The position numbers were made by a program, and so were the translations under genes. Shown in pieces: positions 762 to 64,000 of a stretch of 64,000 nt of DNA (the first letter of the stretch is position 1; the number at the start of each line of letters is the position of its first letter). This DNA comes from Gammaproteobacteria bacterium. Its GTDB lineage: Bacteria > Pseudomonadota > Gammaproteobacteria > Competibacterales > Competibacteraceae. The notes beneath the pieces are model-generated. The model had not been told where the DNA came from and ran no database searches. It saw only the letters and a list, made by a program, of their open reading frames with translations. The stretch is taken from assembly GCA_041396125.1 (NCBI GenBank), contig JAWKZG010000014.1, positions 116,229-180,228 on the forward strand, read 5' to 3'.

Positions 762-771
762 CCGCAATCCT

Positions 772-1995: not shown

Positions 1996-2309
1996 GCAGC
2001 GACGAATTACTGCAGCAGGCCGCTGACTGGCGTGCTCAGGGTCGGCAGGTAGCACTGGCACGGGTGGTGCGGACCTGGGGCTCATCACCGCGACCGGTAG
2101 GCAGTATTCTGATTGTGAATGATCAACTGGATTTCCTGGGTTCAGTGTCAGGTGGCTGTATCGAAGGTGCTGTCATCGAGCAGGCAAAAAGCATTATGGA
2201 CAGCGGTCAGCCGCAACTGCTCGAGTTTGGCGTCAGCAACGAACTGGCCTGGGAAGTCGGTCTGGCCTGCGGTGGCCAGGTGCAGGTCTTCGTGGAGCCT
2301 TTGCAATGA
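1974..2309 (+). CDS. XdhC/CoxI family protein (N-terminal domain)
   Basis: 111 aa, XdhC N-terminal-like sequence; overlaps stop of upstream gene (operon). Confidence 0.65.
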   Translation: MATHDALSSDELLQQAADWRAQGRQVALARVVRTWGSSPRPVGSILIVNDQLDFLGSVSGGCIEGAVIEQAKSIMDSGQPQLLEFGVSNELAWEVGLACGGQVQVFVEPLQ

Positions 2310-4626: not shown

Positions 4627-5384
4627 AGTGCCTGGTGCAGCGCGCTGAACTCCTGACTGAGTTTATGCTGCGGGTCGAGATAAATCAGCGGTCGGGCCTG
4701 TTCGTGCGATTCCCGGATTTTCACCGAGCTGGACAGACAGGGCATAAGTACCGGCAGACCTTCCTCCTGCAGCTGCTGCACTAATTGCCGGGGCAGTTTG
4801 GCGCGGGCCTGGAACTGATTGACCACAATACCCTCGATCTGCAGATCAGGATTGTGATCAGCCCGTAATTCCTCAATCTGGGCGATCAGCTTGTACAACG
4901 CCTGGCGGGAAAAATCATCGCAATCAAACGGAATCAGGCAACGCTCGGCAGCAATCAGCGCCGAGCGTGAATAAAAATTCAGCGCTGGCGGCGTATCGAT
5001 ATAAACCGCATCGAAATCACCGCTGAGTTCGTCCAGGGCTTCGCGCAATTTGTACATTTTATAGCGCGATTCCAGCTTGCTTTCCAACTCATCCATAGCG
5101 TTATTGGCGGCCAGCAGCGACAGATTGGCAAACGGCGTGGGCGTGACATAAAACGCGGGCGGATTCTGCACCAGACGAAAGGTCAGTAGTTGCTCGAAAA
5201 AATCACTAAGCGTGGTATCGAGCTGTTCCACTTGTTTACCCAGCATATAGCGGCTGCTATTGGCTTGCGGATCGAGGTCGACCAGCAAGGTTCGCAAACC
5301 CTGATGAGCGCTCACTGCCGCTAAATTACAACTGATGGTGGATTTGCCAACGCCACCTTTCTGATTGAAGACAACACGACGCAT
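4614..5384 (-). CDS. ParA/MinD-family ATPase (orphan)
   Basis: Deviant Walker A NQKGGVGKST at N-terminus; 256 aa; no parB nearby. Confidence 0.85.
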   Translation of the reverse strand: MRRVVFNQKGGVGKSTISCNLAAVSAHQGLRTLLVDLDPQANSSRYMLGKQVEQLDTTLSDFFEQLLTFRLVQNPPAFYVTPTPFANLSLLAANNAMDELESKLESRYKMYKLREALDELSGDFDAVYIDTPPALNFYSRSALIAAERCLIPFDCDDFSRQALYKLIAQIEELRADHNPDLQIEGIVVNQFQARAKLPRQLVQQLQEEGLPVLMPCLSSSVKIRESHEQARPLIYLDPQHKLSQEFSALHQALQPL

Positions 5385-5500
5385 AATGTTCTCGAACTAG
5401 GGTGCAAAGTAACAGGGGCGGACTGAGTGTCGGGGAATAAATATATATGACATGATCCGCATTAAAGCGGATTTGTCACGCGATGCCAAGCGCCTGCTCG

Positions 5501-6661
5501 CTACAAACCCAGGAAATCCATCAGTTCCTGCCGTCTGTGCTGGGTATCTTCATAGCCCAGGCTGATCAGATCGCGACAAAAATGCGCCTCGAACAATAAA
5601 TACGTTAATAATGCTGAGTTCGACTGCGCTCCGCCCCCCAGGGCTTTCAGCAAAAACCGGACGCTGCGCGGGATATGCGCGATATGACGTGGCGCGATAG
5701 TGGCGATATCCTGACTCGGCGCCAGGGTCAGCAGTCGCACCGGACGGAAAGGATGGCCGGCCGAACCATCGTTACGGCCGTACTGCAAAAGCATATTAAT
5801 CCGTTCCAGCCGTTCGGAATCCGCCGTCAGATTATCCCGAAACAGCGTGTCCAGCACATAGCCGGCAATATGTCCCAGGGTGGGGTAATCGGCGCGTGAA
5901 TCCGTTGCGGGCATCATGCTCAGAGCAGGGTTTCGCACTGTGATGACCAGCAGTTGATCCGCCCCCAGATGCAAGGCAGGGCTGAGCGGGGCGGATTCAC
6001 GCATCGAGCCGTCGCCATGATATTCACCATTTAGATACACTGCCGGAAATACCAGCGGTAAGGCAATGGACGCCATAATATGATCGATACGCAGTTCAAC
6101 CGCCCGTCCCAGGCGTCGGCTGCGGAGCCAGCCGGTTTGCTCGGGAGTGGTCTGGAAATGACAGATGGAACGCCCGGAACTGTAGCCGCTGGTCTGGATT
6201 GCCAGCGCCTTCAGCGTACCCTGATCGATGGCCTGGCTGATCCGGGTCAGGCGGACATGATTTTCCAATAATCCGCGCAATGGTTGATTATCCAACAAAG
6301 CTTCGGGCTGCTGGCTGAATAGACCGCCGCTACTCAGGGCCAGCAGCCAGCGTGAGCCGCCCAGCAGCGCAGAACGGGTATCCGAGCGATAAATTTTGCT
6401 CGGATGCAGATGGCTCCAGATGCCGACCAAGCGCTGAATACCTTCGACCGGCTGGCTGGCAAAACTGGCGAGCATGGCAGCATTGATCGCCCCGGCCGAG
6501 GTGCCGCAGATGACCGGAAACGGATTAGCGGTATCCGCCGGCAGCCATTCTGCGAGTGCCTGCAGTGCCCCGACCTGATAGGCATTACGGGCACCGCCAC
6601 CGGGCAGGATCAGTCCGGTGACAGGGCTTGGGCTGGTCAGATTGTCAGAAGGCATATTCAT
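5501..6661 (-). CDS. Patatin-like phospholipase family protein
   Basis: GGGARNAYQVG oxyanion motif and GTSAGA serine hydrolase motif. Confidence 0.85.
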   Translation of the reverse strand: MNMPSDNLTSPSPVTGLILPGGGARNAYQVGALQALAEWLPADTANPFPVICGTSAGAINAAMLASFASQPVEGIQRLVGIWSHLHPSKIYRSDTRSALLGGSRWLLALSSGGLFSQQPEALLDNQPLRGLLENHVRLTRISQAIDQGTLKALAIQTSGYSSGRSICHFQTTPEQTGWLRSRRLGRAVELRIDHIMASIALPLVFPAVYLNGEYHGDGSMRESAPLSPALHLGADQLLVITVRNPALSMMPATDSRADYPTLGHIAGYVLDTLFRDNLTADSERLERINMLLQYGRNDGSAGHPFRPVRLLTLAPSQDIATIAPRHIAHIPRSVRFLLKALGGGAQSNSALLTYLLFEAHFCRDLISLGYEDTQHRRQELMDFLGL

Positions 6662-19499: not shown

Positions 19500-19808
19500 T
19501 TATAACCTGACTAGTTTGACTAGCAGCTTCCCAAACAATCAGAATATTGGTATATCAAGCAGTTACGATGGCGCAATTTGAGTCATCTTGAAAGTGCTGC
19601 TGATGTAACTCACAGGTATCATCGTTTCCCGAGTTTTCTGTAAATCCGATATCTGGGAAGAAGGATTTTGCAATAGAGAAGCCTTTGCCGCTTGGAACGA
19701 ATGGCTTCAGGCTGGTTAGTTTCATGATGGTTTACTTTTTTTTGCTGACATCTGATTTTAATGTAATCGTCCTGATACGAATCCGTTAACGATACCTGAT
19801 CGAGTGAT
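19500..19808 (-). pseudogene. Highly degraded integron-integrase (intI) 5' remnant
   Basis: Minus-strand translation TNKSPKSLDQV... parallels MNKLPILLDQV... of the intI at 58091; nucleotide similarity to 57990-58091 continues; start codon mutated (ACG). Confidence 0.4.
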
Positions 19809-19839
19809 TTGGGTGACTTATTCGTCCGGAAAATTTTAG

Positions 19840-19960
19840 GTACGTATAAAATTTATGTGAATTTTATCTTTCTGAATTTTATTGCTTTTATTGCTTTTAT
19901 TGCTGGGTGTTGACATTAGAAATTATGGGGGTCTATTTTGGCGTCTGTCTAAATTTAGTT
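19840..19960 (+). promoter_or_regulatory. attI-like region A with Pc-like promoter (TTGACA 19910-19915, TATTTT 19934-19939) ending at G|TT crossover (19958)
   Basis: ~80% identical to 58093-58217 next to intI; identity ends exactly after GTT as expected for attI x attC junction; contains 3x tandem TTATTGCT. Confidence 0.6.
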
Positions 19961-20042
19961 CGTCGCCATCAGAGAAAATCAGTAAGGTGACAAATTTAGG
20001 GTTTTCATCTCATACGCATGGGACCATAGCCGCGACTGGGTA

Positions 20043-21122
20043 TTGGCTCTTGCAGAGCGGCTTCGCAATGATGGAATCGACATTGTGCTCGATCAATGGG
20101 AAACGGTTCCCGGCGATATGCTGCCCAAGTTCATGGAATCCGCAGTTCGTGAAAGCGACTACGTGCTTGTTGTCTGCACTCCTTCGTATAAGAAGAAATC
20201 GGATGATCGAACAGGTGGAGTCGGCTACGAAGGGGACATCATGACCGCAGAGGTCTTCGCTCTCGAAAAGCGAGCGAAGTTTATCCCACTCCTCCGCGAA
20301 GGTGACTGGCGAGCGGCGTCACCGAGTTGGCTGCTGGGAGCCTATTATCTCGACCTGCGAGGGGAGCAATACTCAAGTGACACTTATGGCGAATTGCTTG
20401 ACCTTTTGCTGGGGCGTCGCAAGAAGGCGCCTGACCTGGGGACGTCTCGACCATCCTGGGCTGAGCTAAGTCCGATTGAAATCGTGCAAATTCCCCTCTC
20501 TAGCGAACTCCCTCAATTCTCCAAGGACGGATGGCTTACGCTTATAGCTCACGCATTGGCTAAGACGTTTAGTGACCAGCCAACCACGCGATTCGTCGGA
20601 CTGCTATCGCAACGGATCGTCGAACGAGATGGCAACGAGTTCACGGTGGTATCTATGACTGCACCGTTTTCCAGATTCCTGAAAAGCTATAAACTCTCAA
20701 TCTCGTCGCTGATGGAGGCTTCGCTAAGGCGGGACAGACCGGCAATGGAGGAACAGAAGGCAGACCTTGCTGATACGCTTTCGAAGTGGCGATACCGAGT
20801 AGAAGTGGGATGCGGCGAATCCTGGACGGCAAATCAGTTTGTTGTGGATGCTGAAACGAAGCTCATCGAAGTCACACCTGCCACTCTGGATACAAAGCAA
20901 AAGAAATTTTGGCGACCAAAGTCGACCAGCGAAGTTCTTGCTTTGATTGCGCATCTGAGTAATCCAATTGTTCAAATGAACATTGATGGTCTGTTAGAAG
21001 ATCCGAGGTTGACTGATTTGGTGAAAGACCTTTTAGATCATAAATACGTCAATATGGATCGCCTCCATGTGGCTTTGTCAAATCCTGAACAGTGGGAGTA
21101 CTCTGGTGATGAGGACGTTTAG
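20043..21122 (+). CDS. TIR domain protein with ~230-aa uncharacterised C-terminal domain (cassette A1)
   Basis: In-frame FRVFISYAWDHSRDWVLALAERLRNDGIDIVLDQWE...DYVLVVCTPSY fits TIR alphaA-betaB pattern; TIR homology extends upstream to ~19995 without canonical start (TAA at 19983; listed start is TTG). Confidence 0.65.
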   Translation: MALAERLRNDGIDIVLDQWETVPGDMLPKFMESAVRESDYVLVVCTPSYKKKSDDRTGGVGYEGDIMTAEVFALEKRAKFIPLLREGDWRAASPSWLLGAYYLDLRGEQYSSDTYGELLDLLLGRRKKAPDLGTSRPSWAELSPIEIVQIPLSSELPQFSKDGWLTLIAHALAKTFSDQPTTRFVGLLSQRIVERDGNEFTVVSMTAPFSRFLKSYKLSISSLMEASLRRDRPAMEEQKADLADTLSKWRYRVEVGCGESWTANQFVVDAETKLIEVTPATLDTKQKKFWRPKSTSEVLALIAHLSNPIVQMNIDGLLEDPRLTDLVKDLLDHKYVNMDRLHVALSNPEQWEYSGDEDV

Positions 21123-21132
21123 AGAAATGAGT

Positions 21133-21216
21133 GACGAACAAAGCCGTGCACCGGAGCACCCATTCACGCGGTTCATGAATTCAAACTCTTCCGTTCGTGC
21201 CCGGTGACGGCAGACG
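21133..21216 (+). other. attC A1 (inverse core GACGAAC ... GTTAGGC)
   Basis: GACGAAC complements cassette start TTCGTC; R' GTTAGGC consensus; 84 bp. Confidence 0.55.
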
Positions 21217-21266
21217 TTAGGCTTGCGTCGAGAAAATCAATCAAACTTCAATAAAGGAAAAGAATT

Positions 21267-21476
21267 ATGGCAACAACCATGTTTTTTGAAGAGCTCGTTA
21301 AGTGCCAGGGCGGAAAAGAAGAAATGGATATAGAATTCGGTCGATCCTCATTTTACGAAGAGGATAGTATATATCTGAAGGTGGATGGAAAGTCCATAGT
21401 AATGGACCGAGCGACCGCCAAGAAATTTGTAGAGGCCGCCTCTGGAGTTGGTCACTATTTTGGTTTTATTGACTAG
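21267..21476 (+). CDS. Hypothetical 69-aa protein (cassette A2, gene 1)
   Basis: ORF with RBS aaaggaaaag upstream; no recognisable domain. Confidence 0.4.
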   Translation: MATTMFFEELVKCQGGKEEMDIEFGRSSFYEEDSIYLKVDGKSIVMDRATAKKFVEAASGVGHYFGFID

Positions 21477-21491
21477 ATACTGGGATTATAA

Positions 21492-21755
21492 ATGCCAAAT
21501 ATTGATTTCAAAGATGTTGAAGCAATAGATCCGTCCACAATGGCGGTGTCATTTCCCGCTACCGTAGATGGAGTGCAAATTCGATGTGTCATTTCCACAG
21601 AAGCTTTACAAGATCACTTTAATGCTATGATTGATGATCAATTGGATGTGTTTAAATCAAACAGATATAGTATTGAATGTAAGGCCAGAGAAGTAATTGA
21701 GAGCGGTCGCTATGAAGCAGGCGGCAGCATTTTGATTCGTTCATCTGATTTTTAG
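21492..21755 (+). CDS. DUF1488 family protein (cassette A2, gene 2)
   Basis: 87 aa; VSFPATVDGVQIRCVISTEAL pattern resembles DUF1488. Confidence 0.55.
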   Translation: MPNIDFKDVEAIDPSTMAVSFPATVDGVQIRCVISTEALQDHFNAMIDDQLDVFKSNRYSIECKAREVIESGRYEAGGSILIRSSDF

Positions 21756-21757
21756 GC

Positions 21758-21866
21758 CTAACAAATTGCTGCACGCGGACACATACTGCTACGCTCGTTT
21801 TTGTGTGTCGCTGCGCTCCATTTTACACAAAAACGTTCTCCGCAGTATGTGCCGGTGAGCAAGGCG
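21758..21866 (+). other. attC A2 (GCCTAAC ... GTTATGT), long imperfect palindrome
   Basis: Inverse core complements cassette start TTAGGC; stems ACACATACTGC/GCAGTATGTG and CGTTTTTGTGT/ACACAAAAACG. Confidence 0.5.
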
Positions 21867-21890
21867 TTATGTGCCAGTCGCGAGAATTCG

Positions 21891-22193
21891 ATGCACCTAG
21901 TACCTCAATGGGATGAAATCAGGTTGATCGGCCAGTCCCGAATTGTCGGGTTGACTATGTTAGTGCCGTTCATTGGGTACCTACTACTTTTCAATGAATC
22001 CATCTGGGAATACTTCCGACTATCAACCGACCTCGTTGGTATAAAGCAGATCGAACCTGAATCAACCATTCTACGATTGCACTTTTTGTACTATGGCCTA
22101 ACGTTGGTAGGCTTAGCATCACTCCTTTACCAAGCAGTCTGCCCTCATGAGATCAAGGAGCATGGAAACGGAGTATGCCTATGTGAGTGGTGA
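21891..22193 (+). CDS. Hypothetical membrane protein (cassette A3), overlaps next ORF
   Basis: Predicted TM helices (IVGLTMLVPFIGYLLLF, LYYGLTLVGLASLLY). Confidence 0.35.
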   Translation: MHLVPQWDEIRLIGQSRIVGLTMLVPFIGYLLLFNESIWEYFRLSTDLVGIKQIEPESTILRLHFLYYGLTLVGLASLLYQAVCPHEIKEHGNGVCLCEW

Positions 22194-22551
22194 GTCAACT
22201 CTGATGACTCACGCTCGCTTTGCGAGTCTGGTAAATCCCTACGAAGAAAAACTTACGGAGGAGCCAGAGAAGTACTCGGAGTTAGAAGCCTACGTAAGTA
22301 GCTACAAAAAAGCGTCCAATCCAACCATGGACGTCTATTCTTCGAAGGAAGAACTACGAAGCGAGACTGCGGAACTTGAGCGAACTGCGTTCATAAACAC
22401 GCTGAGCTTCAATTGGCGATATCTATGCTCCAAGCACTTTTACACCAGGTTGGCTGTTTCTGCCCTCTACTTTTCTGGGTTCAGCTTGGTGTTGTGGCCA
22501 TCAGCGGTAGTGTTCGTTCAAGTCACATCTGGAATTCTGAGAGGCACATAA
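22147..22551 (+). CDS. Hypothetical protein with C-terminal TM segment (cassette A3); may be frameshifted continuation of previous ORF
   Basis: 134 aa ORF, stop embedded in inverse core ACATAAC. Confidence 0.35.
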   Translation: MRSRSMETEYAYVSGESTLMTHARFASLVNPYEEKLTEEPEKYSELEAYVSSYKKASNPTMDVYSSKEELRSETAELERTAFINTLSFNWRYLCSKHFYTRLAVSALYFSGFSLVLWPSAVVFVQVTSGILRGT

Positions 22552-22638
22552 CATGAAGTTGAAGTCGGACGTAGCAACCTGTCATCAAAATTGCTGCGCA
22601 ATTTTGCCGCCAGAACGACTACGCCGTTTAACTTGGTG
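22546..22638 (+). other. attC A3 (ACATAAC ... GTTAGGC)
   Basis: Inverse core complements cassette start TTATGT; 93 bp. Confidence 0.55.
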
Positions 22639-22664
22639 TTAGGCTATCAAGTAGGCATACAGCA

Positions 22665-23465
22665 ATGTTTGATAAGGAGTGGATCGAGAAAGCACAGAAG
22701 GTCACGGACGCGGAGTCCTGGGCTCATGGTGCCATGCTTGAACTAGATACCTCCGGTGGCATTTACCTCAACACACTTCGTATGTGGTATGAAGAATTTC
22801 CTGGATCAAAAAAGCAGAAGAAACCCCTACGACAACGGATCGAAAACTTTGGTAATGAAGACCACCTTGGTGGAGTAAACGAATTATCGTGGTGGAAATT
22901 TCTACAGAAAGGTAATTTCGGTGCTGAGCCAGTACCCACTGCTAGCAGCGCACGCCCAGATTTCAAAGTTCAGACACCGACAGAATTCTTCGTTGAAGTT
23001 TCAACGTTAAATGTTTCTGCTAATGAAAAGCAACAGATGGAAAGTGAAGGGGCTATTTCACTCAACCACGCGGAAACCCTCCGTCGCTTGTTGCTTAAAT
23101 CCACAAATGATAAACACGAACAGATGTCCTTTGCGTGCAACCAACGGCGCCCATGCTGCTTAGTGCTATTTGACTATATGACATGGAGCGCATTTGGCAC
23201 TCAATTTTTCCGCTATTTGGCAAGTTATCTTTTTCGCGAGAATGGAGGCTTCACGCAGCTGCCTACTGAACTATCTGCCCTTATCTATGTTGAAAGAAAA
23301 GTAATAGACGGGCACATTGGGTTAAGTCGTGATCGGTCAGCGGTGTACTACAATCCTAATGCGAAATACCCGCTCGCACCAGGAACATTCACTGAATTGC
23401 GGCAGTACTGGTACCAAATGGTGGAAGTCGAACCTCAATGCAAAGATTACTGGGTATGGCTGTAA
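22665..23465 (+). CDS. Hypothetical 266-aa protein (cassette A4)
   Basis: Clean ORF; possible nuclease-like RPDFKV...FFVEVST segment, unverified. Confidence 0.5.
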   Translation: MFDKEWIEKAQKVTDAESWAHGAMLELDTSGGIYLNTLRMWYEEFPGSKKQKKPLRQRIENFGNEDHLGGVNELSWWKFLQKGNFGAEPVPTASSARPDFKVQTPTEFFVEVSTLNVSANEKQQMESEGAISLNHAETLRRLLLKSTNDKHEQMSFACNQRRPCCLVLFDYMTWSAFGTQFFRYLASYLFRENGGFTQLPTELSALIYVERKVIDGHIGLSRDRSAVYYNPNAKYPLAPGTFTELRQYWYQMVEVEPQCKDYWVWL

Positions 23466-23481
23466 TTGTGGCTACGAGTTG

Positions 23482-23556
23482 GCCTAACAATGCCATTAAC
23501 ACGGACCCCAAAAAGCTACGCTGCGCTCCGCTTTGTGGGACCGGTTATGGCTGGCG
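23482..23556 (+). other. attC A4 (GCCTAAC ... GTTAGGC)
   Basis: Perfectly complementary R''/R' pair, 75 bp. Confidence 0.6.
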
Positions 23557-23581
23557 TTAGGCGTCACTAAGCGCTTCGGCA

Positions 23582-24055
23582 ATGAAATCTGAGTCCTATC
23601 GCGTTCGAGTCCTTGGCAGCTCTGACATTCAAGCAATGCGGGAAATGCTTGTCGCATTTGGCGAGGCCTTCGAAGACAAGCCGACTTACACCCAGCATCA
23701 GCCAACGGACACCTACCTCAAGGAGCTGCTCTCAAGCTCGACTTTCATCGCTGTAGCAGCGCTTTCTGAAGCAAAGGTCATCGGTGGCCTTGCGGCATAT
23801 GCGCTTCCCAAATTTGAGCAGGCCCGCTCAGAGATCTACATCTACGATCTGGCTGTACTAGAAAGCCATCGCCGCCAAGGCATTGCGACGGCGATGATTC
23901 AAGAACTCAAGAAGCTGGCCAAATCCATAGGCGCCTACGTCATCTTCGTTCAGGCAGATCATGGCGACGATCCGGCAATCAATCTCTATACGAAGCTCGG
24001 AGTTCGAGAAGATGTCCTTCACTTCGACATACTTCCTGGCGATGGTGACGCCTGA
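23582..24055 (+). CDS. Aminoglycoside 3-N-acetyltransferase, AAC(3)-I-like GNAT (cassette A5)
   Basis: Strong similarity to AAC(3)-Ia along whole length: [81 protein letters not shown]. Confidence 0.8.
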
Positions 24056-24115
24056 CCCTTCCATTGAGAGGTCGTTTTCCGGCCTACGGCCTCCAAGCGC
24101 CTCTCATGTCAAACG
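24051..24115 (+). other. attC A5 (GCCTGAC ... GTTATAC)
   Basis: Inverse-core-like overlapping stop codon; hairpin TTGAGAGG/CCTCTCATG. Confidence 0.4.
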
Positions 24116-24124
24116 TTATACATA

Positions 24125-24820
24125 ATGGATCCAAAGAAGCTGTTTATTGATGAGAGGTTAAAAGCCAATTGCGCCTATTGTGGTGCAGTCATGAATTCTA
24201 GGGATCACACTCCTTCTAAAGTATTCCTTGATGAGCCGTACCCAGAAAATCTGCCTGTCGCAGAAGCCTGCGCAAAATGCAATGGTGGTTTTTCTGCTGA
24301 CGAAGAGTATCTATCTTGCCTGATTGAGTGCGTAGTTCACGGGACAGCCAAGCCTGATGAAAGATTCAGAGATAAAGTGGCAAGAACTCTTGAAGCCCGA
24401 CCAGCCATCGCTAAACGAATCGAGAGTGGAAAGCAGTTGGATATTAGCAATAATCCAATTTGGCAACCGGAGGGGCCTCGAGTCAAGAATATTGTCCTGA
24501 AGCTTGCTCGCGGATACGTATCCTATGAGCTAGGGCTTCAGCATGTAGAAGAGCCGGTAATTATTGATATTGTGCCAAGTCCATGCATGACCGAAGATGA
24601 ATTAGAAGCTTTTAACACACTTGAGGAGCATGCTGGATTCCTATATCCAGAAATTGGCAGCCGTGCTTTCGTTAATTTACTGTCAGGAAAAGCCACAGCA
24701 TACGGTGGGTGGTATGTCGTGCAAGAAGGAAGATATCGATATGCCCTCGGTCAGTCAGCGGGTGATTGGGTGAAATTGGTGTTAAGTGAATATCTCGCAT
24801 GTCGCGTGGTTTGGGAGTAA
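24125..24820 (+). CDS. HNH endonuclease-domain protein (cassette A6)
   Basis: CAYCG...DHTPSK...CAKCN zinc-finger/HNH-like arrangement; 231 aa. Confidence 0.55.
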   Translation: MDPKKLFIDERLKANCAYCGAVMNSRDHTPSKVFLDEPYPENLPVAEACAKCNGGFSADEEYLSCLIECVVHGTAKPDERFRDKVARTLEARPAIAKRIESGKQLDISNNPIWQPEGPRVKNIVLKLARGYVSYELGLQHVEEPVIIDIVPSPCMTEDELEAFNTLEEHAGFLYPEIGSRAFVNLLSGKATAYGGWYVVQEGRYRYALGQSAGDWVKLVLSEYLACRVVWE

Positions 24821-24824
24821 TTAT

Positions 24825-24875
24825 GTATAACAAGGTGCCCAAGTTGGACGGCTTTGCCGGCCCTTGGCTTGGTAG
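24825..24875 (+). other. attC A6 (GTATAAC ... GTTAGAG)
   Basis: Inverse core complements cassette start TTATAC; short palindrome. Confidence 0.4.
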
Positions 24876-24920
24876 TTAGAGGAGAGTTAATGAATTGCCG
24901 GACTTGGAAACTGGATCTCA

Positions 24921-25936: not shown

Positions 25937-26035
25937 CTCTAACATTTGTGTCAAGTCGACGGGAATTTCGCTGGCGCTTCATTCCTGCTGCTTACCCATA
26001 CCGTTTGTCGCTACGCGGCGCAACCGGTCGTTCGG
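25937..26035 (+). other. attC A7 (CTCTAAC ... GTTCGGC), boundaries tentative
   Basis: CTCTAAC complements cassette start TTAGAG; TGTCAAG/CTTGACA stems. Confidence 0.3.
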
Positions 26036-26099
26036 CCTTGACAGAACCTGCTCCATTATCAGCGCTTGTATCTACAAAGATCCTTTCAGGCGATAATTA

Positions 26100-56813: not shown

Positions 56814-57416
56814 ATGCAGGCCAATGATGCTGGAGGACAAGCAATGCAAACCGTAGCCTTTACCCGCATGGCGGATGGCACCCGCGAAGAATACCAGTTC
56901 CTGGAAAAGCTCGAAGAGGAGTATATACAGGCGTTGCCGCAACGGCTGATGGAGGCCTTGCAGCGTCTGGAGCATTCTTTTTCAGGCTATAAGGTAACGC
57001 GCCTGGGGCACTCCCTGCAGGGGGCGACCCGTGCCTACCGCGACGGCCGGGAGGAAGACTATATTGTCGCAGTGCTGCTGCATGATATTGGCGACGAGCT
57101 GGCACCGCATACGCACAGCGAACTGGCTGCTGCCGTGCTGCGTCCGTTTGTTCCGGAAAAGCTGTACTGGATTGTCAAGCACCACGGCGTGTTTCAGATG
57201 GTGTATTACGCCCATCATTTCGGCGCTGACCCGAATGCGCGCGACCGTTTCAAAGACCACCCCTGGTATCAGGACGCGGTCGAGTTCTGCGAACTGTACG
57301 ACCAGAACTGCTTCGACCCGGATTACGATACCTTGCCGCTGACGTTTTTCCAGCCCATGCTGGAGCGCGTCTTTGGGCGCAAACCGCAATTCGGTGGCGA
57401 GCGGGATATGAACTAG
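56814..57416 (+). CDS. HD-domain phosphohydrolase
   Basis: LLHDIGDE HD motif. Confidence 0.7.
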   Translation: MQANDAGGQAMQTVAFTRMADGTREEYQFLEKLEEEYIQALPQRLMEALQRLEHSFSGYKVTRLGHSLQGATRAYRDGREEDYIVAVLLHDIGDELAPHTHSELAAAVLRPFVPEKLYWIVKHHGVFQMVYYAHHFGADPNARDRFKDHPWYQDAVEFCELYDQNCFDPDYDTLPLTFFQPMLERVFGRKPQFGGERDMN

Positions 57417-57497
57417 GCGTTTTGCAATGCCCAGACCGGCAAAAAGAGAATTGATTTTTGCCGGTTTCACGATGTTACAAACCACTACAGCGGTTAG

Positions 57498-58091
57498 TCA
57501 GGTCGATACCGGCGTAGCTGGTATTAAGTGTTTGGCCTTAATTAGTTGGTCTTTTAAGGGTAGTAACAGATTTTCCGGAAGCATAGTCACCCGGTCCTTA
57601 TTACCTTTGCCTTCGCGAACGATGATTTCGCGCCGCTCAAATTCAATATCTTTGACGCGTAACCGCAAGCTTTCCAGCAAACGCATGCCTGTGCCATAAA
57701 GCAAACTTGCCACCAGCCACATGGTACCGTTCAATTCCGCTAGCAATGCCGACACTTCGCGTGGTGTCAACACCACCGGCAATCGTTTGGCTGCTTTGGC
57801 TTCCACCATTTCTTTCAACCACGGCAAATCGATATTGAGCACTTCTTTATAGAGAAAAAGTAAAGCCGATTTAGCTTGATTTTGGGTCGAGGCCGAAACC
57901 TTGCGTTCAACTGCCAGATACGTCAAAAAGGCTTCCACTTCTTTGACACCCATATCTTTGGGATGGCGCTATTGGTGGTACAAGATGAAACGCTTTGCCC
58001 AGTCGGCGTACGCGTCTTCGGTCCGAATGGAATAATGTTTGACACGTATCCGGTGACGAACCTGGTCAAGTAGTATTGGCAGTTTATTCAT
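57498..58091 (-). pseudogene. intI: Integron integrase intI: in-frame TAG (57969-57971) and loss of C-terminal half
   Basis: [84 protein letters not shown]... is the IntI N-terminal fold; only ~190 of ~320 aa present; catalytic RHRY C-terminal region absent. Confidence 0.75.
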
Positions 58092-58092
58092 C

Positions 58093-58217
58093 CGCAAAGT
58101 TTTAGGTTCGTATAATATTAATGTAAAGTTTATCTTTATGAATTTAATGGTTTTTATTTTTTGACGTTGACATTATAAAGTATGGCGGTTTATTTTTGCG
58201 TCTGTCTAAATTTAGTT
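58093..58217 (+). promoter_or_regulatory. attI-like region B with Pc-like promoter (TTGACA 58167-58172, TTATTT ~58189-58194); crossover G at 58215
   Basis: Divergent from intI start; ends GTT|AGCC; ~80% identical to 19840-19960. Confidence 0.6.
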
Positions 58218-58416
58218 AGCCAAAATTATTATTTTTTAGAGTTGGCTCAGCGTTGGTGGCCAAAAGAACGCATCAGTGTGCAGGCCGGTGCCCGATTACA
58301 TTCAATGACAGAATGCCAAACGGTTGGATTGAAAGTCAGCGGAGAGTTTGGGCGTATGACTCATAAAATCATCTCATTATCACGGGCTGGTGTTGCATCT
58401 GGCGCAAGTCTGTGGT

Positions 58417-58471
58417 GTCTAACAAGGCATTCAAGCGGAGCGTCTTTACAAGCCGCTCGCTTAGTTTATCG
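58417..58471 (+). other. attC B1 (GTCTAAC ... GTTAGGT), 55 bp
   Basis: Inverse core one mismatch from complement of cassette start TTAGCC; hairpin AAGCGGAGCG/CGCTCGCTT. Confidence 0.4.
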
Positions 58472-58488
58472 TTAGGTGATCAGCCGGG

Positions 58489-58860
58489 ATGAGTAACAGT
58501 CTCAGGATATTAATATTGCTGGCTTTTCTGATTCATTCACTCTATCTGTTCTTCGATAGAGAATCGGTAATGTATTACGATGGCTATTATGCTGTCTGGG
58601 CAGAATATGCTTGGTATGCGGTTCAGGTCTTATTATTATGTTCTTTAGTCGGGCTGTTTTTCCTTGTGAAAGTATCACGCTATTTTTTAATCGTAGCACT
58701 CTCTGAGCTTAACTTTTGTTTACGCGCAAGGTTCAACCATCTATGCTCCTGCGCATCATGTAATGGTTCAAGTGGGCTCGGCATCTACGGTGCTATTCTT
58801 TCGATAGTGTTTTTTTCAAATATTGTTTGGCGTCAAAAAAGGCCGAATAATGGCGTGTAA
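58489..58860 (+). CDS. Hypothetical 3-TM membrane protein (cassette B2)
   Basis: 123 aa with three hydrophobic helices. Confidence 0.45.
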   Translation: MSNSLRILILLAFLIHSLYLFFDRESVMYYDGYYAVWAEYAWYAVQVLLLCSLVGLFFLVKVSRYFLIVALSELNFCLRARFNHLCSCASCNGSSGLGIYGAILSIVFFSNIVWRQKRPNNGV

Positions 58861-58863
58861 CTC

Positions 58864-58930
58864 ATCTAACAAAAGCATCAACAGGGATGTCTGCTTCGCA
58901 GCCACCCGTTATGAAAATCGTTAGACCGAT
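58864..58930 (+). other. attC B2 (ATCTAAC ... GTTAGAC)
   Basis: Inverse core/R' pair flanking short palindrome. Confidence 0.45.
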
Positions 58931-58958
58931 CGCGCCCCGGACCTAGGAGGCATGCTGC

Positions 58959-60003
58959 GTGAAAGTTCTAATCGTTGGCTCCCTGCATCATGATTTTGAT
59001 GAAGAAGTGAGGAACGCCTTCGTCGGCGCCTGCAAGGAGATCGGGGCCACCTTGGCACGCGGTGGGTTCGAGTTCGTCGTGGGATCATCAAGCCCGAACA
59101 CAGCTGACAAATGGGTTCTGGAGGGCGCCGCGCACGTTGAGGGCAAGCACAAAGTATTCGTCTTTCGACCGGACGATGGCCCAACGCCGAAGCTGCCGTC
59201 CGATGACACCACAAAGGGAGAATTCATTGTCAGCTACAAGCGACTGCGTGGTCCATGGGCCGGTGGTCGTCTCCCAGATCCAGGCGGCCGATTGTGTTCT
59301 TATGGTTGGCGGGGCGCGAGGCAGTGCGCAGGTCGGGTATTCAGCGATGGCACTGGAGAAGCCCGTCCTTGCGGTAGCTTGTTTTGGTGGTTCAGCCGCA
59401 GAAGCCTGGACACAGTTCGAGCCATTCTACGAGCGTCTGTCGACGACCAGAGAGCGGGTTGGTAGCCTTCGAGAAAAATGGCAACCGGGCAACGACGAGA
59501 TCGTGGTCAACGTTCTGACAGAACTTGTCCGGCGCAAGATTTTCAGCCGAACGCACCTCGCTACAGATGCGGTTCCCTTACTGCTCAACATGGCCTTGTT
59601 TGCAGCGTGGGTGTGGCTTTTCGTTGCGCCCCCCAAGCCATTGCAAGCATCTTTCTTTGCGTTGCTAGCCGTGTCGGCGTTTCTGGGGACAGCTCTTCGA
59701 GGATCGCTTCGGGTGGTTGTCGATCCAACTGCAGGTCCCTCACGAAGCGAACTCATTGCTGAATTCAGTGCCGGCCTTGTTCTCGCGTTTGCACTCGCGC
59801 TGCTCTACCTCGCAGGCAGCTTCACTTTCACAGGTGATTTCAATGCCATCTCCTCGAATTCCACCACCGTCACCGTGGACTACCAGAGGGTGGCGGTTGC
59901 AATGGGGTTACTTGGAATTGCAGGTGGTTGGTTGCTTGAGCGAGTTGCCGAGAACTTGACCGGCTGGTTCGGTAGTCGTCTGCCAAGTGCTGACGGGCCG
60001 TGA
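58959..60003 (+). pseudogene. LOG/SLOG-like Rossmann domain fused to C-terminal 4-TM domain; frameshift near 59240 (cassette B3)
   Basis: N-part MKVLIVGS...GGFEFVVGSS and C-frame VLMVGGARGSAQVGYSAMALEKPVLAVACFGG resemble LOG-family PGGxGTxEE/GG region; four TM helices after residue ~190. Confidence 0.5.
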
Positions 60004-60014
60004 GTTGAAAAGTC

Positions 60015-60065
<51 letters not shown>

Positions 60066-61925
60066 AGCGTGTGTGCCGGGCATGGCACGAAACGAGTCGG
60101 GTGAGAGTCCCGATACCAGGTATTCGCAGAGCCGAAGGTTAGGAGAAGGGCAAGGGCGTCATCGTGAGGTGGGGTCTGTAGGAAGCCCAATCCAAAGCGG
60201 CGGGGCGACGAACAGGAACTGGATACGAGGTGTGACACCGACGGGGCCAGTGGGCACGTGACCATCAAGCCCTCCATCTGCACGGGTCGGTGTTTTATAA
60301 ATCCAGCGTCTACGTCGCGAACGTTTCGTGTCTTACCCCGGGAGGTCTGTCAATTGTTCACGGATCGAACTGAAACGGGAGTAATCGCGTTTGATCGGTT
60401 GGCAGAAGTCAGCAGCGGGCATAGTAGGCGAGATCTCACCGCCGAAGGCCCAAACCTTTGTGGAAGTGACCGCCGGTGAAGAACCCATCGAACGCCTCAG
60501 CCCCGCAGCTTGCGCTGCCTCTGGTGATGCCGGAGGAGGAACGATGTGTTGAGGATCCGGACGACTCACCTTCCAAGACGAGCGCTTCATCGCTCATGGC
60601 GCAGGTATTGGAGCGGGAGAATCTGCTACGTGCGCTCAGACAAGTCCAACGTAATCGAGGTGCGCCAGGCATCGACGGCATGTGTGTCGAACAACTGTCT
60701 GGCTATCTCACCCTCCATTGGCCGCGCATCCGGACTGAACTGGCCGAAGGGCGCTATCGCCCCAAGCCGGTTAAGCGGGTCCTGATTCCGAAGCCTGACG
60801 GACGGCAACGCAAACTGGGTATTCCCACGGTCCTCGACCGTTTTATCCAGCAGGCGATTGCGCAAGTCGTGCAACGGCACTGGGAGCCGCACTTTCATGA
60901 CAACAGTTATGGATTTCGTCCCGGGCGCAACGCCCATCAAGCGATCAGGCACGCGCAGAGCGCGATCCGAGGCGGCAAGCGCTGGGTCGTTGACCTGGAT
61001 CTGGATGCCTTCTTTGATCGGGTCAACCACAGCCGCCTGATTCGGCGGTTGTACCGTCACCTGTCTGAACGTGGCCTGCTGCAACTGATCACTCGCTACC
61101 TGAAGGCGGGGGTCATGACAGAAGGCCAACGACAGGCGAGCGCCGAAGGGGTGCCGCAAGGCGGCCCCTTATCGCCGGTGCTCTCCAACGTCGTGCTCGA
61201 TGAGCTGGATTGGGAGCTGCACCGTCGAGGCCACACCTTTGCCCGTTATGCGGACGACTGCCAGGTATACGTCAGCAGTCAGCGAGCAGGCGAGCGGGTG
61301 ATGGCTCGTCTACAGCGCTATATCGAGCGGACCCTTCGACTCAAGGTCAACGCCGGGAAAAGTGCCGTGGACAAACCCTGGAAGCGTAGCTTCCTGGGCT
61401 TCACCTTCAGCCGCCGGGGTGCCCGGGTGAAAGTGGCCGAGAAGGCCATCGACCGCCTGCAAGCCAACATCCGGCAGCTGAGCCGTCGCACGAGAGGCTA
61501 CAGTTTGCGTCAGATCATCGCTGAGCTGAAGAAAACCCTGCTTGGATGGAAAGCGTACTTCGACTTGAGCGAGGTACTGAGTCCGCTGCGGGATCTGGAC
61601 AAGTGGCTGCGACGTCGATTGCGGTGTTATCAGTGGAAGCAATGGGGCCGCTCGGGGTATCGCCGTCTGCGCAAGCTTGGCGTTCCCCGGGTACTGGCCT
61701 GGAATACGGCCAAATCGGCGCATGGGCCTTGGCGTATCAGTCACAGCCCTGCACTGTACCAGGCGATGCCGAAGCGTTACTTTAGGGACTTGGGGCTGCC
61801 GGAACTGGCAGCACGATGAACCTCACAAAGGAACCGCCGTGGTACGTGATCCGTATGCCCGGTGGTGTGGGAGGAGAGGGGCTGCGAGGCCTCTCCCTAT
61901 CCCGATTATACGTAAGTAATGATCG
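60066..61925 (+). mobile_element. Group II intron (bacterial class C-like, attC-associated); boundaries approximate
   Basis: 5' GTGTGCC... (GUGYG) right after a stem-loop; RT/maturase ORF in domain IV; GC-rich D5-like hairpin GGGAGGAGAGGGGC...GCCTCTCCCTATCCC and short D6-like hairpin near 61870-61920. Confidence 0.55.
60476..61819 (+). CDS. Group II intron reverse transcriptase/maturase (no endonuclease domain)
   Basis: RT blocks 0-7 (PKPDGRQRKLGIPTVLDRFIQQA, YADDCQVYV) and maturase X domain; 447 aa. Confidence 0.9.
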   Translation: MKNPSNASAPQLALPLVMPEEERCVEDPDDSPSKTSASSLMAQVLERENLLRALRQVQRNRGAPGIDGMCVEQLSGYLTLHWPRIRTELAEGRYRPKPVKRVLIPKPDGRQRKLGIPTVLDRFIQQAIAQVVQRHWEPHFHDNSYGFRPGRNAHQAIRHAQSAIRGGKRWVVDLDLDAFFDRVNHSRLIRRLYRHLSERGLLQLITRYLKAGVMTEGQRQASAEGVPQGGPLSPVLSNVVLDELDWELHRRGHTFARYADDCQVYVSSQRAGERVMARLQRYIERTLRLKVNAGKSAVDKPWKRSFLGFTFSRRGARVKVAEKAIDRLQANIRQLSRRTRGYSLRQIIAELKKTLLGWKAYFDLSEVLSPLRDLDKWLRRRLRCYQWKQWGRSGYRRLRKLGVPRVLAWNTAKSAHGPWRISHSPALYQAMPKRYFRDLGLPELAAR

Positions 61926-62299
61926 AGAAACTGTTCGCGAATACGGTTTACGTGAAAGTCTTTCCGAATCGCTTTGAGCTAAAGCACATCGAGCCGGGAA
62001 GGTCAGAGGTGGAAGTAAGCAGTGAGCCATTCACAACGGCTAGGTTACTCGTGGGGAAATTTTCCGTAGCAGAGTGTGTTCTGAAGCGCGGCATGAAACG
62101 GTTGCACGAAAAAAGGTGGTTTTCGCCAAGTCCAATCGTGGTAATTCAGCCTATGGAAAAAACTGACAACGGCCTGAGTGAAGTCGAAGAAAGGGTCTTG
62201 CTGGAGTTGGCAGCTGGAGCCGGTGCACGAAAAGTATCTATATGGGTGGGGAACGAACTTTCGGATGATGAAGTCACCGAAAAGGCAGCACGCGCATAA
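61919..62299 (+). CDS. Truncated MreB-like (actin-fold ATPase) fragment, ~126 aa; real start may be GTG ~61961
   Basis: FSVAECVLKRGMKRLH..RWFSPSPIVVIQPMEKTDNGLSEVEERVLLELAAGAGARKV parallels MreB [52 protein letters not shown]; stops after phosphate-2 region. Confidence 0.5.
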   Translation: MIEKLFANTVYVKVFPNRFELKHIEPGRSEVEVSSEPFTTARLLVGKFSVAECVLKRGMKRLHEKRWFSPSPIVVIQPMEKTDNGLSEVEERVLLELAAGAGARKVSIWVGNELSDDEVTEKAARA

Positions 62300-62484
62300 C
62301 AAGACGGCCAAGCTGTTCGCCTGTGGCTCACTCCGACGCTCAGCACTTCGCGCCTGCTCAGGCATGGCGTTCCCGCTCTTCTTTCCTAGTAAAGGGTTAC
62401 CACAATTGGATCAAAACCTAACGCCAAGGTAAGCGGCGCTCAGCATGGAGCGCTTGATCGGGCAAAAATGGCAAAGCCATGTGC

Positions 62485-62512
62485 TTGCATCTATACGGCA
62501 TGGCCGTATAAT
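62485..62512 (+). promoter_or_regulatory. Sigma70-like promoter of TA cassette (TTGCAT-16 nt-TATAAT)
   Basis: Near-consensus hexamers 17 nt upstream of toxin start. Confidence 0.55.
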
Positions 62513-62528
62513 AGGATTATGTTTACCG

Positions 62529-62854
62529 TAGTCGAAACGCCTACCTTTACAAAACTTGCCGCTGATTATTGGGATGAAGATGAGCGAGGGGAATTCGCTG
62601 CATGGATAGCATCTGATCCAGAATTTGGTGATGTAGTTCCGGGGTCTGGAGGCGTGCGCAAAATACGTTGGAACAGAAAAGGCAGCGGCAAGCGAGGTGG
62701 TGTCCGTGTTATCTATTTTAATCGACGGATTAATGGTGAAGTATGGTTGCTGTTGATTTACGCAAAAAGCGCTAAAGATAATATCCCCGCTCATATACTG
62801 AAAGAAATCAAAGAGGAAATTGAACAATGCCAAAGACAGAAAAAGAGTTGTTAG
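62529..62854 (+). CDS. Type II toxin, RelE/ParE superfamily (HigB-like, phage Gp49-like)
   Basis: VETPTFTKLAADYWDEDERGEFAAWIASDPEFGDVVPGSGGVRKIRWNRKGSGKRGGVRVIYF pattern. Confidence 0.75.
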
Positions 62855-63135
62855 AGCGAGATGCTAAGCGCGATATCTGCGCAGAACTTTTACAGTCTGT
62901 GCGAGAAATGAAAGCAGGTAAGCGCAACCGAGTACACCAAATAAAGATATCTTCGGTGATTGAAGCCCGTCAAAAAGTTGGATTGTCTCAAGCAGAATTT
63001 GCTGAGCTGCTAGGAGTGTCAAAGCGAACGCTTCAAGACTGGGAGCAAGGTAGGCGAGAGCCGTCGGGTGCAGCGAAGTCATTACTTGAAGTTGCAAGAA
63101 AGCGGCCTGAAGTATTATTAGAAATATTTAGCTAG
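62827..63135 (+). CDS. HTH XRE-family antitoxin (HigA-like)
   Basis: GLSQAEFAELLGVSKRTLQDWEQGRREPSGAAKSLL; overlaps toxin stop. Confidence 0.75.
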   Translation: MPKTEKELLERDAKRDICAELLQSVREMKAGKRNRVHQIKISSVIEARQKVGLSQAEFAELLGVSKRTLQDWEQGRREPSGAAKSLLEVARKRPEVLLEIFS

Positions 63136-63147
63136 CATTGAGCGCAA

Positions 63148-63242
63148 ACCTAACATCAGGTTGAGGCGGACTTTTTACAAACTGGCCCAACTTGAGTTCT
63201 GCCAGAACAGGCCAATTTGTAAAAAGCCTCTTAACCTGGGCG
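63148..63242 (+). other. attC B5 (ACCTAAC ... GTTATGT), 95 bp
   Basis: Long stems GGACTTTTTACAAACTGGCC/GGCCAATTTGTAAAAAGCC; R' GTTATGT identical to attC A2. Confidence 0.6.
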
Positions 63243-63430
63243 TTATGTGATTGTTTTATGAAATAATATCAAGAAAATGTGTACTAAAGTACCTGTGAGT
63301 GAGTTAGTCCAGCTTCCGATTACCTGGGTTAGAGGTGATGACGAATGACTTAAGACGGTGTTTAAGTCGTTAAAGTCAGGAAACTGTATCAAGCAACCCA
63401 TTAGACTACTAAATTGTGGCTGTGGAAAAA

Positions 63431-64000
63431 CCCATCTCTTTACACACAAGTCAAAAAGCCCCGATTTGCCGGGCATAGCGCAGGCCTGCGGTGAAATCCA
63501 TCACCCGCTGCAAGCCCAGCCAGAGGGTCTTTGCACCGGGCTCGCCATCGCCCTTGCGCCCTAAAAAGCCGCCCAGTCTGGCGATCATGCGCAAGGCAGC
63601 GTTGAGTGTGGGGGGCTGCTGGGGCATGGGCTGTTCGGCCAGTAAATACGCCCCCTGCCACTCCTCCTCAGCCAATACCAGGTTGACGTCCAAATCCGGC
63701 ACTGTGCGTCCCAGGCGCATCAAACGGCCTATACGCCAGCTCACGATCAGATACAGCGCTATAGCCCGCTCCATGCGCGCTAACGTAGACAGTTGTAGCG
63801 CTTCGAGCCGACAGCCCTGTTTGAGAATCAAAAAAAACAGTTCGATTTCCCAGCGTGCCAGATACCAGCTGATCAGCTCCCGTGCCGCCGCCTGATGGGG
63901 GATGTCGCGATTGCTCAGTAAACGCCACAGCACCGGCTTGACGCCCGCCGGGGCCTCGATTTCCTCGGCCATTAATAAATTCACCGTGAGTGCCGGCGCA
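63431..64000 (-). mobile_element. IS4-family (IS50-like) insertion sequence, right end; continues beyond window
   Basis: Terminal sequence CCATCTCTTTACACACAAGT resembles Tn5/IS50 outside end CTGACTCTTATACACAAGT; transposase C-terminus follows. Confidence 0.65.
63451..64000 (-). CDS. IS4-family DDE transposase, C-terminal part (N-terminus outside window)
   Basis: WYLARWEIELFF...IARLGGF motifs match Tn5 transposase (YRRRWRIEEFHKAWK...IARLGGFMD). Confidence 0.75.
   Translation of the reverse strand, partial: APALTVNLLMAEEIEAPAGVKPVLWRLLSNRDIPHQAAARELISWYLARWEIELFFLILKQGCRLEALQLSTLARMERAIALYLIVSWRIGRLMRLGRTVPDLDVNLVLAEEEWQGAYLLAEQPMPQQPPTLNAALRMIARLGGFLGRKGDGEPGAKTLWLGLQRVMDFTAGLRYARQIGAF

Follow-up and report, generated by a model that had tools for sequence, protein, structure and literature searches.

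An inactivated integrase gene, a damaged cassette array and a sense-oriented group II intron in an uncultured gammaproteobacterium

Sedentary chromosomal integrons with an inactivated integrase gene (intI) are known, those of the Xanthomonas pathovars being an example. Cury et al. in 2016 reportedly recognised a class named 'CALIN next to an intI pseudogene', CALIN standing for a cluster of attC sites lacking integron integrases. Here, we analyse a region of this kind close to the end of a stretch of 64,000 nucleotides (contig JAWKZG010000014.1 of assembly GCA_041396125.1, positions 116,229 to 180,228, forward strand; hereafter the window, whose own positions are used throughout). The region is very probably a decaying sedentary chromosomal integron of an uncultured gammaproteobacterium of the wastewater type, with a dead intI, five cassettes and the start of a sixth. 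What the window holds is an integron remnant without a functional integrase, not a complete integron, and IntegronFinder would class it as a CALIN.

The locus shares with the Xanthomonas-type inactivated integrons a fixed site, cassettes that vary among strains, an intI hit by both a nonsense mutation and a deletion, and a leftover array with an insertion sequence (IS). In both, the cassettes encode mostly proteins of unknown function and toxin-antitoxin (TA) modules. It differs from them by its Competibacteraceae-like uncultured host, by the coexistence of several intI alleles, and by the presence of two attI platforms 38 kb apart, neither of them with a working intI.

The array also carries a group II intron, for which the literature offers two kinds of precedent. 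Classical group IIC-attC introns occupy the bottom strand of the attC site, at its R'' end, and are antisense to the cassettes, so that transcription from the cassette promoter (Pc) is blocked (PMC3001079, PMC7923331). Sense-strand precedents are Kl.pn.I3, which disrupts an attC (PMC5027574), and a top-strand intron of Enterobacter cloacae that PMC7923331 cites. The window intron belongs with the second kind, a likeness that for Kl.pn.I3 and the E. cloacae intron is drawn from the literature accounts and not from their sequences.

The integrase gene and its chromosomal site

The integrase gene keeps its 5' part and carries two lesions.

57498-58091, minus strand: intI pseudogene, with codons 1-189 of a 321-codon integron integrase gene, then eight out-of-context codons and a stop
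57969-57971, minus strand: in-frame TAG, replacing the AAG codon of Lys41
57525-57526, no strand assigned: junction of a 424-bp deletion

The gene starts with an ATG at 58091 and its frame now ends at 57498-57500. Once the TAG is masked, the fragment scores 240.6 bits with the integron integrase model of NCBIfam (TIGR02249, profile positions 1-183 of 315), against 56.7 bits with XerC and 54.7 bits with XerD. The sequence-only reading of this DNA, which saw an IntI-type tyrosine-recombinase gene divergent from attI and Pc and named a grouping with XerC or XerD as the outcome that would speak against it, is borne out by this lead of more than 180 bits. A search of 5.8 billion proteins returned intact integron integrases of 321 aa that are 98-99% identical to the fragment (P0002 and P0003), followed by a graded series of homologues down to the IntI of Nitrosomonas ureae (81%). 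The 99% identical orthologue P0002 matches TIGR02249 over the full model with 473.7 bits, for a cutoff of 265.

The TAG came out of the protein alignment, in which all orthologues have AAG, and is absent from the related contigs L081, L082 and L083. The deletion was placed by blastn and alignment against L081 and L082, and its junction is also present in L083. It removed codons 190-321 and 24 bp 3' of the stop. In intact orthologues these codons encode the additional domain specific to IntI, as well as the catalytic residues of box II, among them the tyrosine. Hence, the in-frame TAG and the missing catalytic C-terminal half described from the sequence alone are both real features of this assembly. 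The proposed alignment of the fragment for the IntI-specific domain succeeded for the orthologues, where the domain is seen, and failed for the fragment, from which it has been deleted. L083 has the deletion without the TAG, and the deletion is therefore the older lesion. In this genome intI lost its function with the catalytic half, and the nonsense mutation at Lys41 came later.

One might suspect that the lesions are artefacts of assembly or consensus and that the integron is really intact and functional. The window does come from a metagenome-assembled genome (MAG), intact intI alleles 98-99% identical to the fragment coexist in related samples, and the frameshift of the third cassette, described below, amounts to 2 bp in a GT-rich run. 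Yet L083 is an independent contig assembled from another sample, and it has in common with the window both the deletion junction and four junction-adjacent single-nucleotide polymorphisms that set the two apart from the intact alleles. Because the junction recurs together with its flanking haplotype, we can discard an assembly artefact as the source of the deletion. Contig L091 has lost even more of intI at the same locus, and a clean in-register deletion within one gene is not what a chimeric join is expected to produce. We thus regard an intact integron as very improbable.

The platform formed by intI, attI and Pc adjoins an HD-domain gene and a 3-hydroxyacyl-CoA dehydrogenase gene, and related strains keep an intact IntI of 321 aa at this place. 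Contig L082, which carries P0003, is collinear with the window at 53.0-57.5 kb, through the genes for a rhodanese, the 3-hydroxyacyl-CoA dehydrogenase and then the HD-domain protein. Therefore, the integron occupies a fixed chromosomal site, of which the window is a damaged allele. In fact, three allele states of intI are found at this one site in related metagenomic strains: intact, partly deleted and fully deleted. The last is that of L091 (its positions 1-6573; Candidatus Competibacteraceae MAG GCA_020445095.1), where attI is gone and only the last few bases of intI are left. A recurrent breakpoint at 57525, common to the window and L091, was considered and rejected: in L091 the 30 bp that lie below the intI stop are still present, and its own deletion is another and larger one.

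The remnant itself (57526-58000) shows many private substitutions near its 5' end when compared with three relatives, a pattern that is consistent with relaxed constraint after inactivation. A tblastn search with P0002 found no second intI in the 64-kb window, its sole match being the remnant (58091-57525).

The core genes of the window have a G+C content of about 55-60%, and the integron region is a mosaic of 40-63%, as cassettes of mixed origin would give. The nearest relatives of several parts are found in Candidatus Competibacteraceae MAGs; the source MAG, in which the window lies on a contig of 184,525 nt, is labelled 'Gammaproteobacteria bacterium' at NCBI, where proteins of the window are recorded as MEZ5593672.1, MEZ5593673.1 and MEZ5593637.1.

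Recombination sites and cassettes of the array

The array next to the intI remnant (array B) is preceded by its own recombination site and promoter.

58092-58217, plus strand: attI region, with the recombination point between G58215 and T58216
58167-58196, plus strand: candidate Pc, TTGACA-18-TATTTT

The recombination point emerges from the comparison of four attI homologues, i.e. this copy (copy B), a second copy in the window (copy A, 19773-19960) and those of L081 and L083. The four are alike up to ...TCTAAATTTAGTT (58217) and diverge right after the GTT at 58215-58217, with four different cassettes downstream. Such a break of homology at GTT is the behaviour expected of an attI recombination point, and we regard it as the strongest evidence for attI function that can be had without an experiment. 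It also agrees with the placement of attI and Pc at 58093-58217 made from the sequence alone, the intergenic region being 58092-58217. The candidate Pc is the best sigma-70-like match in 57400-63500 (10/12) and faces the array. Its hexamers are kept in copy A and in L083, and the -35 hexamer reads TTGATA in L081. This conservation of a consensus promoter suggests that the attI promoter would transcribe the array, and may do so still.

Rfam is without an attC family and we built our own covariance model (R1) from 47 sites of 55-72 nt, collected in other genomes, where they lie beside integron integrase genes on the side of the cassettes. These are short, betaproteobacterial-type attCs, and long sites are under-scored. 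The R and L helices of the training sites pair in 87% of cells, against 23-46% when partners are slid. As a positive control, the class 1 attCs of plasmids pR148 and pPp47, which are outside the training set, score 30-57 bits. With its filters disabled, an R1 search of both strands gave six matches in the window with E<0.01, all on the plus strand and all inside the two arrays. The sites of array B are the following.

58417-58477, plus strand: attC1 (R'' GTCTAAC, R' GTTAGGT)
58864-58926, plus strand: attC2 (ATCTAAC to GTTAGAC)
60016-60070 and 61907-61911, plus strand: attC3, split by the intron, with an R' box made of G60069-T60070 and TATAC
62416-62463, no strand assigned: attC remnant between cassettes 4 and 5
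63148-63248, plus strand: attC5 (ACCTAAC to GTTATGT), 101 nt

Three of these sites are recovered by the covariance model, on which the attC calls made from the sequence alone had been said to stand or fall: attC1 with 42.6 bits (E 4e-10; 27.7 bits with nhmmer), attC3 with 25.2 bits (60016-60076; E 4e-5) and attC2 with 19.9 bits (E 0.0016). The bottom strands of the attCs fold as DNA hairpins closed by the R boxes, with bulges in the 3' arm and z-scores from -3.3 to -5.9, in line with the extrahelical bases that the sequence-only reading had proposed to look for. The z-score is -4.1 for attC1, with its bulged 3' arm, and -3.3 for attC2. The reconstituted attC3 reaches -5.9; its restored site ends in GTTATAC and its bottom strand shows two extrahelical bases. 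The fifth site was called by the scan for R boxes and folds (z=-5.9, with 0/200 shuffles as stable) and starts 13 nt after the antitoxin stop.

The site between cassettes 4 and 5 has one R box (ACCTAAC on the plus strand, GTTAGGT on the minus strand) and an L-type hairpin, without a partner R box. Its orientation may be either one. On the minus strand it gets 11.4 bits from R1 (E 0.48) and 15.3 bits from nhmmer (E 0.0011, 3' half only). Its fold z-score is -1.2. R1 and nhmmer thus favour the minus strand, whereas the plus strand is favoured by the side of the bulge and by the R''-L'' consensus, which the site matches by eye. In our reading it is what is left of an attC, and its decay has fused cassettes 4 and 5. 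Another candidate, a GCATAAC...GTT pair spotted by eye at 62296-62372, was rejected (fold z=-0.05, no R1 match).

The sites delimit these cassettes.

58216-58471, plus strand: cassette 1, 256 bp, with short ORFs (open reading frames) or ORFs overlapping attI or attC only
58472-58920, plus strand: cassette 2, whose ORF (58489-58860) encodes a hydrophobic protein of 123 aa
58959-60003, plus strand: gene of cassette 3, a SLOG-TM pseudogene, with a predicted N-terminal SLOG/LOG-fold domain and a predicted C-terminal membrane region of four long helices
61919-62299, plus strand: gene of cassette 4, intact, YjaA-family, 126 aa
62519-62854, plus strand: toxin gene of cassette 5, RelE-type (PF06296), placed before its antitoxin
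62827-63135, plus strand: antitoxin gene of cassette 5, with an Xre/MqsA-C-type helix-turn-helix, 102 aa
63243-63432, plus strand: start of the sixth cassette, from the G/TT of attC5 to the IS terminus
63433-64000, minus strand: IS of the IS4 family, IS50/Tn5-type, running off the window

The earlier proposal that each attC-type site parts a single ORF or a TA pair holds for attC1 to attC3 and for attC5. It does not hold at the cassette 4/5 site, which is a remnant, nor for cassette 1, which has no credible ORF: its 97-aa ORF has no family match in Pfam or NCBIfam. Similarly, the 123-aa protein of cassette 2 has no match in Pfam, NCBIfam or PADLOC.

The gene of cassette 3 has suffered a -2 frameshift between 59270 and 59271. 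Contig L086 matches the window at 99.8% identity across 3.2 kb. It has two extra bases (GT) after 59270, through which the two ORFs that overlap in the window become a single ORF of 348 aa. About 45 full-length homologues have 340-363 aa, and the window copy is therefore the frameshifted one. The gene is a genuine cassette since a homologue 85% identical (P0122) sits in the array of another genome, with an attC 13 nt after its stop. Its product is poorly caught by sequence profiles: the SLOG cluster4 model gives an E-value of only 0.22, with no significant Pfam or PADLOC model. An AlphaFold2 model of the family has a pLDDT of 79 overall, rising to about 90 in its N-terminal domain. Among PDB entries, Foldseek matches it best to TM1055, the SLOG domain of ThsA, and LOG (E from 9e-5 to 1e-3; TM-score about 0.6 on the target). 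Thus, the name SLOG-TM describes a predicted fold. The LOG/SLOG-TM cargo announced by the sequence-only reading finds support at this level, in a gene that is no longer intact. The predicted N-terminal Rossmann-like fold would resemble that of the Thoeris ThsA SLOG domain and of the LOG family; unlike these, the putative effector is a membrane domain of four long helices and not a SIR2 or Macro domain, and the window copy is frameshifted. Distant SLOG-TM homologues (41%) occur in L089 (5222-7032) and L090 (3155-4965), where they overlap by 4 nt an upstream gene of 260 aa. Their operons include an N6-methyltransferase and a protein kinase, and have the look of a defence island.

What had been taken for an MreB-like fragment in cassette 4 is a complete YjaA-family ORF (71.4 bits with NF041448, E 7e-20, below the 125-bit cutoff, against 18.9 bits for MreB), and the MreB assignment was rejected. 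The ORF is identical in L086, and L091 has a 126-aa product at the same place. In cassette 5, the toxin matches PF06296 with 28.9 bits (cutoff 27) and the antitoxin matches HTH_3 with 47.8, MqsA_antitoxin with 34.7 and TIGR03830 with 51 bits (below cutoff). The two genes overlap by 28 nt. A TA module described earlier as HigBA-like is thus present as a toxin-first pair of a RelE-superfamily protein and a helix-turn-helix protein; its family matches reach the RelE-type PF06296 and not HigB specifically. A TTGCAT-16-TATAAT motif, read from the sequence, lies directly 5' of the toxin gene (about 62487-62514). With this promoter motif of its own, the pair would stabilise the array. PADLOC has no match for the SLOG-TM, YjaA-like and RelE-like proteins.

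The IS50-like insertion was correctly recognised from the sequence alone. Its transposase matches Dimer_Tnp_Tn5 (PF02281) with 130.3 bits and NF033590 with 182.2 bits (cutoff 160), and its DNA resembles IS4 copies of Polaromonas from 63433 onward, at the terminal repeat ...CTCTTTACACACAAGT. One end of the element lies inside the window, and the array can be read up to position 64000, where the window ends.

With both kinds of site described, one can ask whether there is an integron at all, or whether we see the remnant of a XerC/XerD-type or phage-type integrase, with palindromes that are repetitive extragenic palindromic elements or terminators. Pfam indeed gives the intI fragment only generic SAM-like and Phage_integrase domains, and several palindromes could serve as terminators. 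Yet the integron integrase profile leads as described above, and full-length orthologues pass the IntI cutoff. The palindromes have RYYYAAC and GTTRRRY boxes, match R1, and are confined to the two arrays, where each gene unit has one and all share a strand; the homology of the attI copies ends at the canonical GTT. We give this explanation almost no credence.

The reading of the region as a decaying integron has nevertheless several points against it. The IntI-specific additional domain is absent from the window fragment, because of the deletion, and is present only in the orthologues (P0002, P0003, P0006 and P0010). The TAG is seen in this assembly alone and may be a consensus error of the MAG. 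The same is true of the 2-bp frameshift of cassette 3, which falls in a short GT-rich run and is reflected in the NCBI gene call (218 aa). R1 is narrower than the model of IntegronFinder: it missed at least the blaIMP-4 attC in a control plasmid and also misses some long sites. With R1, attC5 is not significant (8.4 bits from a model trained on attCs of 55-72 nt) and its support is structural. Finally, the fourth attC (62416-62463) is a half-site and Pc is a consensus match.

A sense-oriented intron in the third attC site

The group II intron noticed in the array from the sequence alone is indeed there, and it is complete.

60071-61906, plus strand: group II intron with an endonuclease-less (En-less) intron-encoded protein (IEP), sitting at GT^T within the attC3 R' box, on the top strand and oriented like the cassettes
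60476-61819, plus strand: intron-encoded reverse transcriptase/maturase, 447 aa

Rfam models match it with 120 bits (RF02001) and 46.6 bits (RF01998), with domains I-IV at 60158-60450. The match to domains V/VI has 24.2 bits, which is below the gathering threshold, but it covers the full model and ends exactly at 61906. The encoded protein scores 396.5 bits with TIGR04416, has RVT_1 and GIIM domains, and continues for about 47 residues after GIIM, without an endonuclease domain. The intron starts with GUGUG and ends with ...CCCGAU; the window reads ...GAGCGT[GTGTGCC...CCCGAT]TATACG.

The closest annotated relatives of the IEP, 62-66% identical, belong to introns in the class 1 integron arrays of pR148 (Aeromonas, NC_019380) and pPp47 (Proteus, NZ_MG516912). 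There, attC_aadA1 (pR148) and attC_aacA4 (pPp47) are interrupted as ...CGT[GTGTG...CCCGAT]TAGAT..., and the boundaries 60071-61906 were set by comparison with these two sites. In all three DNAs the intron occupies the top strand within R', follows the G/TT crossover by one base, and is oriented as the cassettes. The window intron thus shares with those of the plasmids an En-less IEP, the ends, the orientation and the insertion at ...CGT^TA of the R' top strand. It differs from them by about 35% in protein sequence and by its residence in an environmental chromosomal array instead of a plasmid-borne class 1 integron. These relatives have been described as group IIC (PMC5027574, PMC7923331), and by analogy the window intron is probably of that class.

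Like classical group IIC-attC introns of the S.ma.I2 type, the window intron has an En-less IEP and targets an attC hairpin that precedes a GTT motif. Unlike them, which occupy the R'' end of the bottom strand in antisense, it lies in the plus strand at the R' box, in sense to the cassettes. An intron of a Serratia plasmid that is 50% identical (H21) was considered as an integron intron of the S.ma.I2 type and rejected, since it sits in an IncC backbone.

The sense orientation would have consequences for the expression of the array. Because it lies in the sense strand, the intron would be co-transcribed with the cassettes and could splice out. Hence, it need not silence the cassettes downstream. 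The window has a net positive GC skew, which suggests that lagging-strand synthesis uses the plus strand as its template; En-less introns prefer such a substrate.

A second platform and the scope for cassette exchange

A second array on the same strand, 38 kb upstream of array B, shows that the contig has two platforms, both without a working intI.

19773-19960, plus strand: second attI/Pc copy (copy A), sharing about 80% identity with copy B (81% over 83 nt), with about 50 nt of intI left and its ATG changed to ACG
19961-24883, plus strand: array A, with at least six cassettes, encoding a bSEFIR/TIR protein, a DUF1488 pair, proteins of unknown function and an AAC(3)-I acetyltransferase
21133-21222, 21756-21872, 22546-22644, 23482-23562, 24050-24121 and 24826-24883, plus strand: attCs of array A, three called with R1, the set resting on the fold scan and folds

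The three R1 matches with E<0.01 in this array are 23482-23562, 24050-24121 and 21133-21222 (17.7-21.5 bits). The first cassette (20043-21122) encodes a TIR/SEFIR-domain protein (PADLOC bSEFIR, 169 bits; Pfam TIR_2, 57 bits). The gene at 23582-24055 encodes an acetyltransferase of the AAC(3)-I family (NF033083 equivalog, 230.8 bits, cutoff 200). The statement that there are no known resistance genes in array B was right for that array; this one lies in array A of the same window. Together, bSEFIR/TIR in array A and SLOG-TM in array B suggest a signalling-type defence cargo, the link between genes 38 kb apart being putative. One cassette of array A is filled by the overlapping ORFs 21801-22193 and 22147-22551, which have the look of a further gene with a frameshift. 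A stretch of 58 nt with a promoter-like TTGACA...TAT motif, at the far end of array A (26009-26066), is 86% identical to L091 283-340, where intI used to be.

Can cassettes still move in such an array? Their excision and insertion would be beyond the local intI, and would need an IntI provided in trans. That the array is frozen is what we infer from a search that covered the 64-kb window. One might speculate that it is not frozen at all, and that an intI-less platform of this sort, a CALIN, is served in trans by an IntI encoded at another place in the genome or by a visiting element, so that its cassettes still turn over. The attI, the Pc and three attCs remain well formed, and there is a second attI platform on the contig. 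L083 has the identical deletion and junction haplotype, yet a different first cassette right after the GTT of attI. In L091, the order is an nSTAND1 gene, a KwaA-KwaB (Kiwa) cassette and then the block made of the intron, the YjaA gene and the TA pair, which is 99.3% identical to the window (60067-63104), when the core flank is only 95% identical. Its homology to the window begins within 4 nt of the G/TT crossover. The attC interrupted by the intron in L091 resembles that at 23482-23522 of the window. Against turnover, tblastn found no intact intI in the stretch it covered, and the differences between strains could also have come from homologous recombination among strains or among copies of the intron, or may be older than the deletion. 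Furthermore, the -2 frameshift of the SLOG-TM gene, the lost R box of the fourth attC, the intron in the R' box of attC3 and the IS in the sixth cassette all damage the array, and argue for relaxed maintenance. On balance, ongoing turnover seems to us possible but rather doubtful.

A bolder version of this idea appears less probable still. The two attI platforms without intI may be live docking sites used in trans, the intron and the cassette behind it may move together as a composite unit, and environmental chromosomal arrays may be the reservoir of the top-strand attC introns of clinical class 1 integrons. The composite unit would explain why the 99.3% identical intron/YjaA/TA block is found behind different cassettes in genomes whose core flanks are 95% identical. 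We consider this an unlikely scenario, and keep to the reading of the locus as a decaying integron that is probably immobile at present. That reading leaves room for cassette exchange after the loss of intI, through an integrase in trans or through homologous recombination. A hint of such later exchange comes from L083, with the same intI deletion and another first cassette, and from L091, with the same intron block and another upstream cassette.

Every component of the locus is of a known kind, and there is no new system here. The combination, with its polymorphism in the population, is instructive more than surprising. The current understanding of integrons is unchanged and receives one more instance, in which the decay of an integron is well documented at several stages in one natural population. 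A sense-oriented group II intron in an attC's top strand, close to those of clinical class 1 integrons, is placed in an environmental chromosomal array. The arrays carry cargo of the defence type (SLOG-TM and bSEFIR/TIR in the window, Kiwa in a relative) and a gene of the AAC(3)-I family, which fits the view that the chromosomal integrons of wastewater bacteria hold phage-defence and resistance cassettes.

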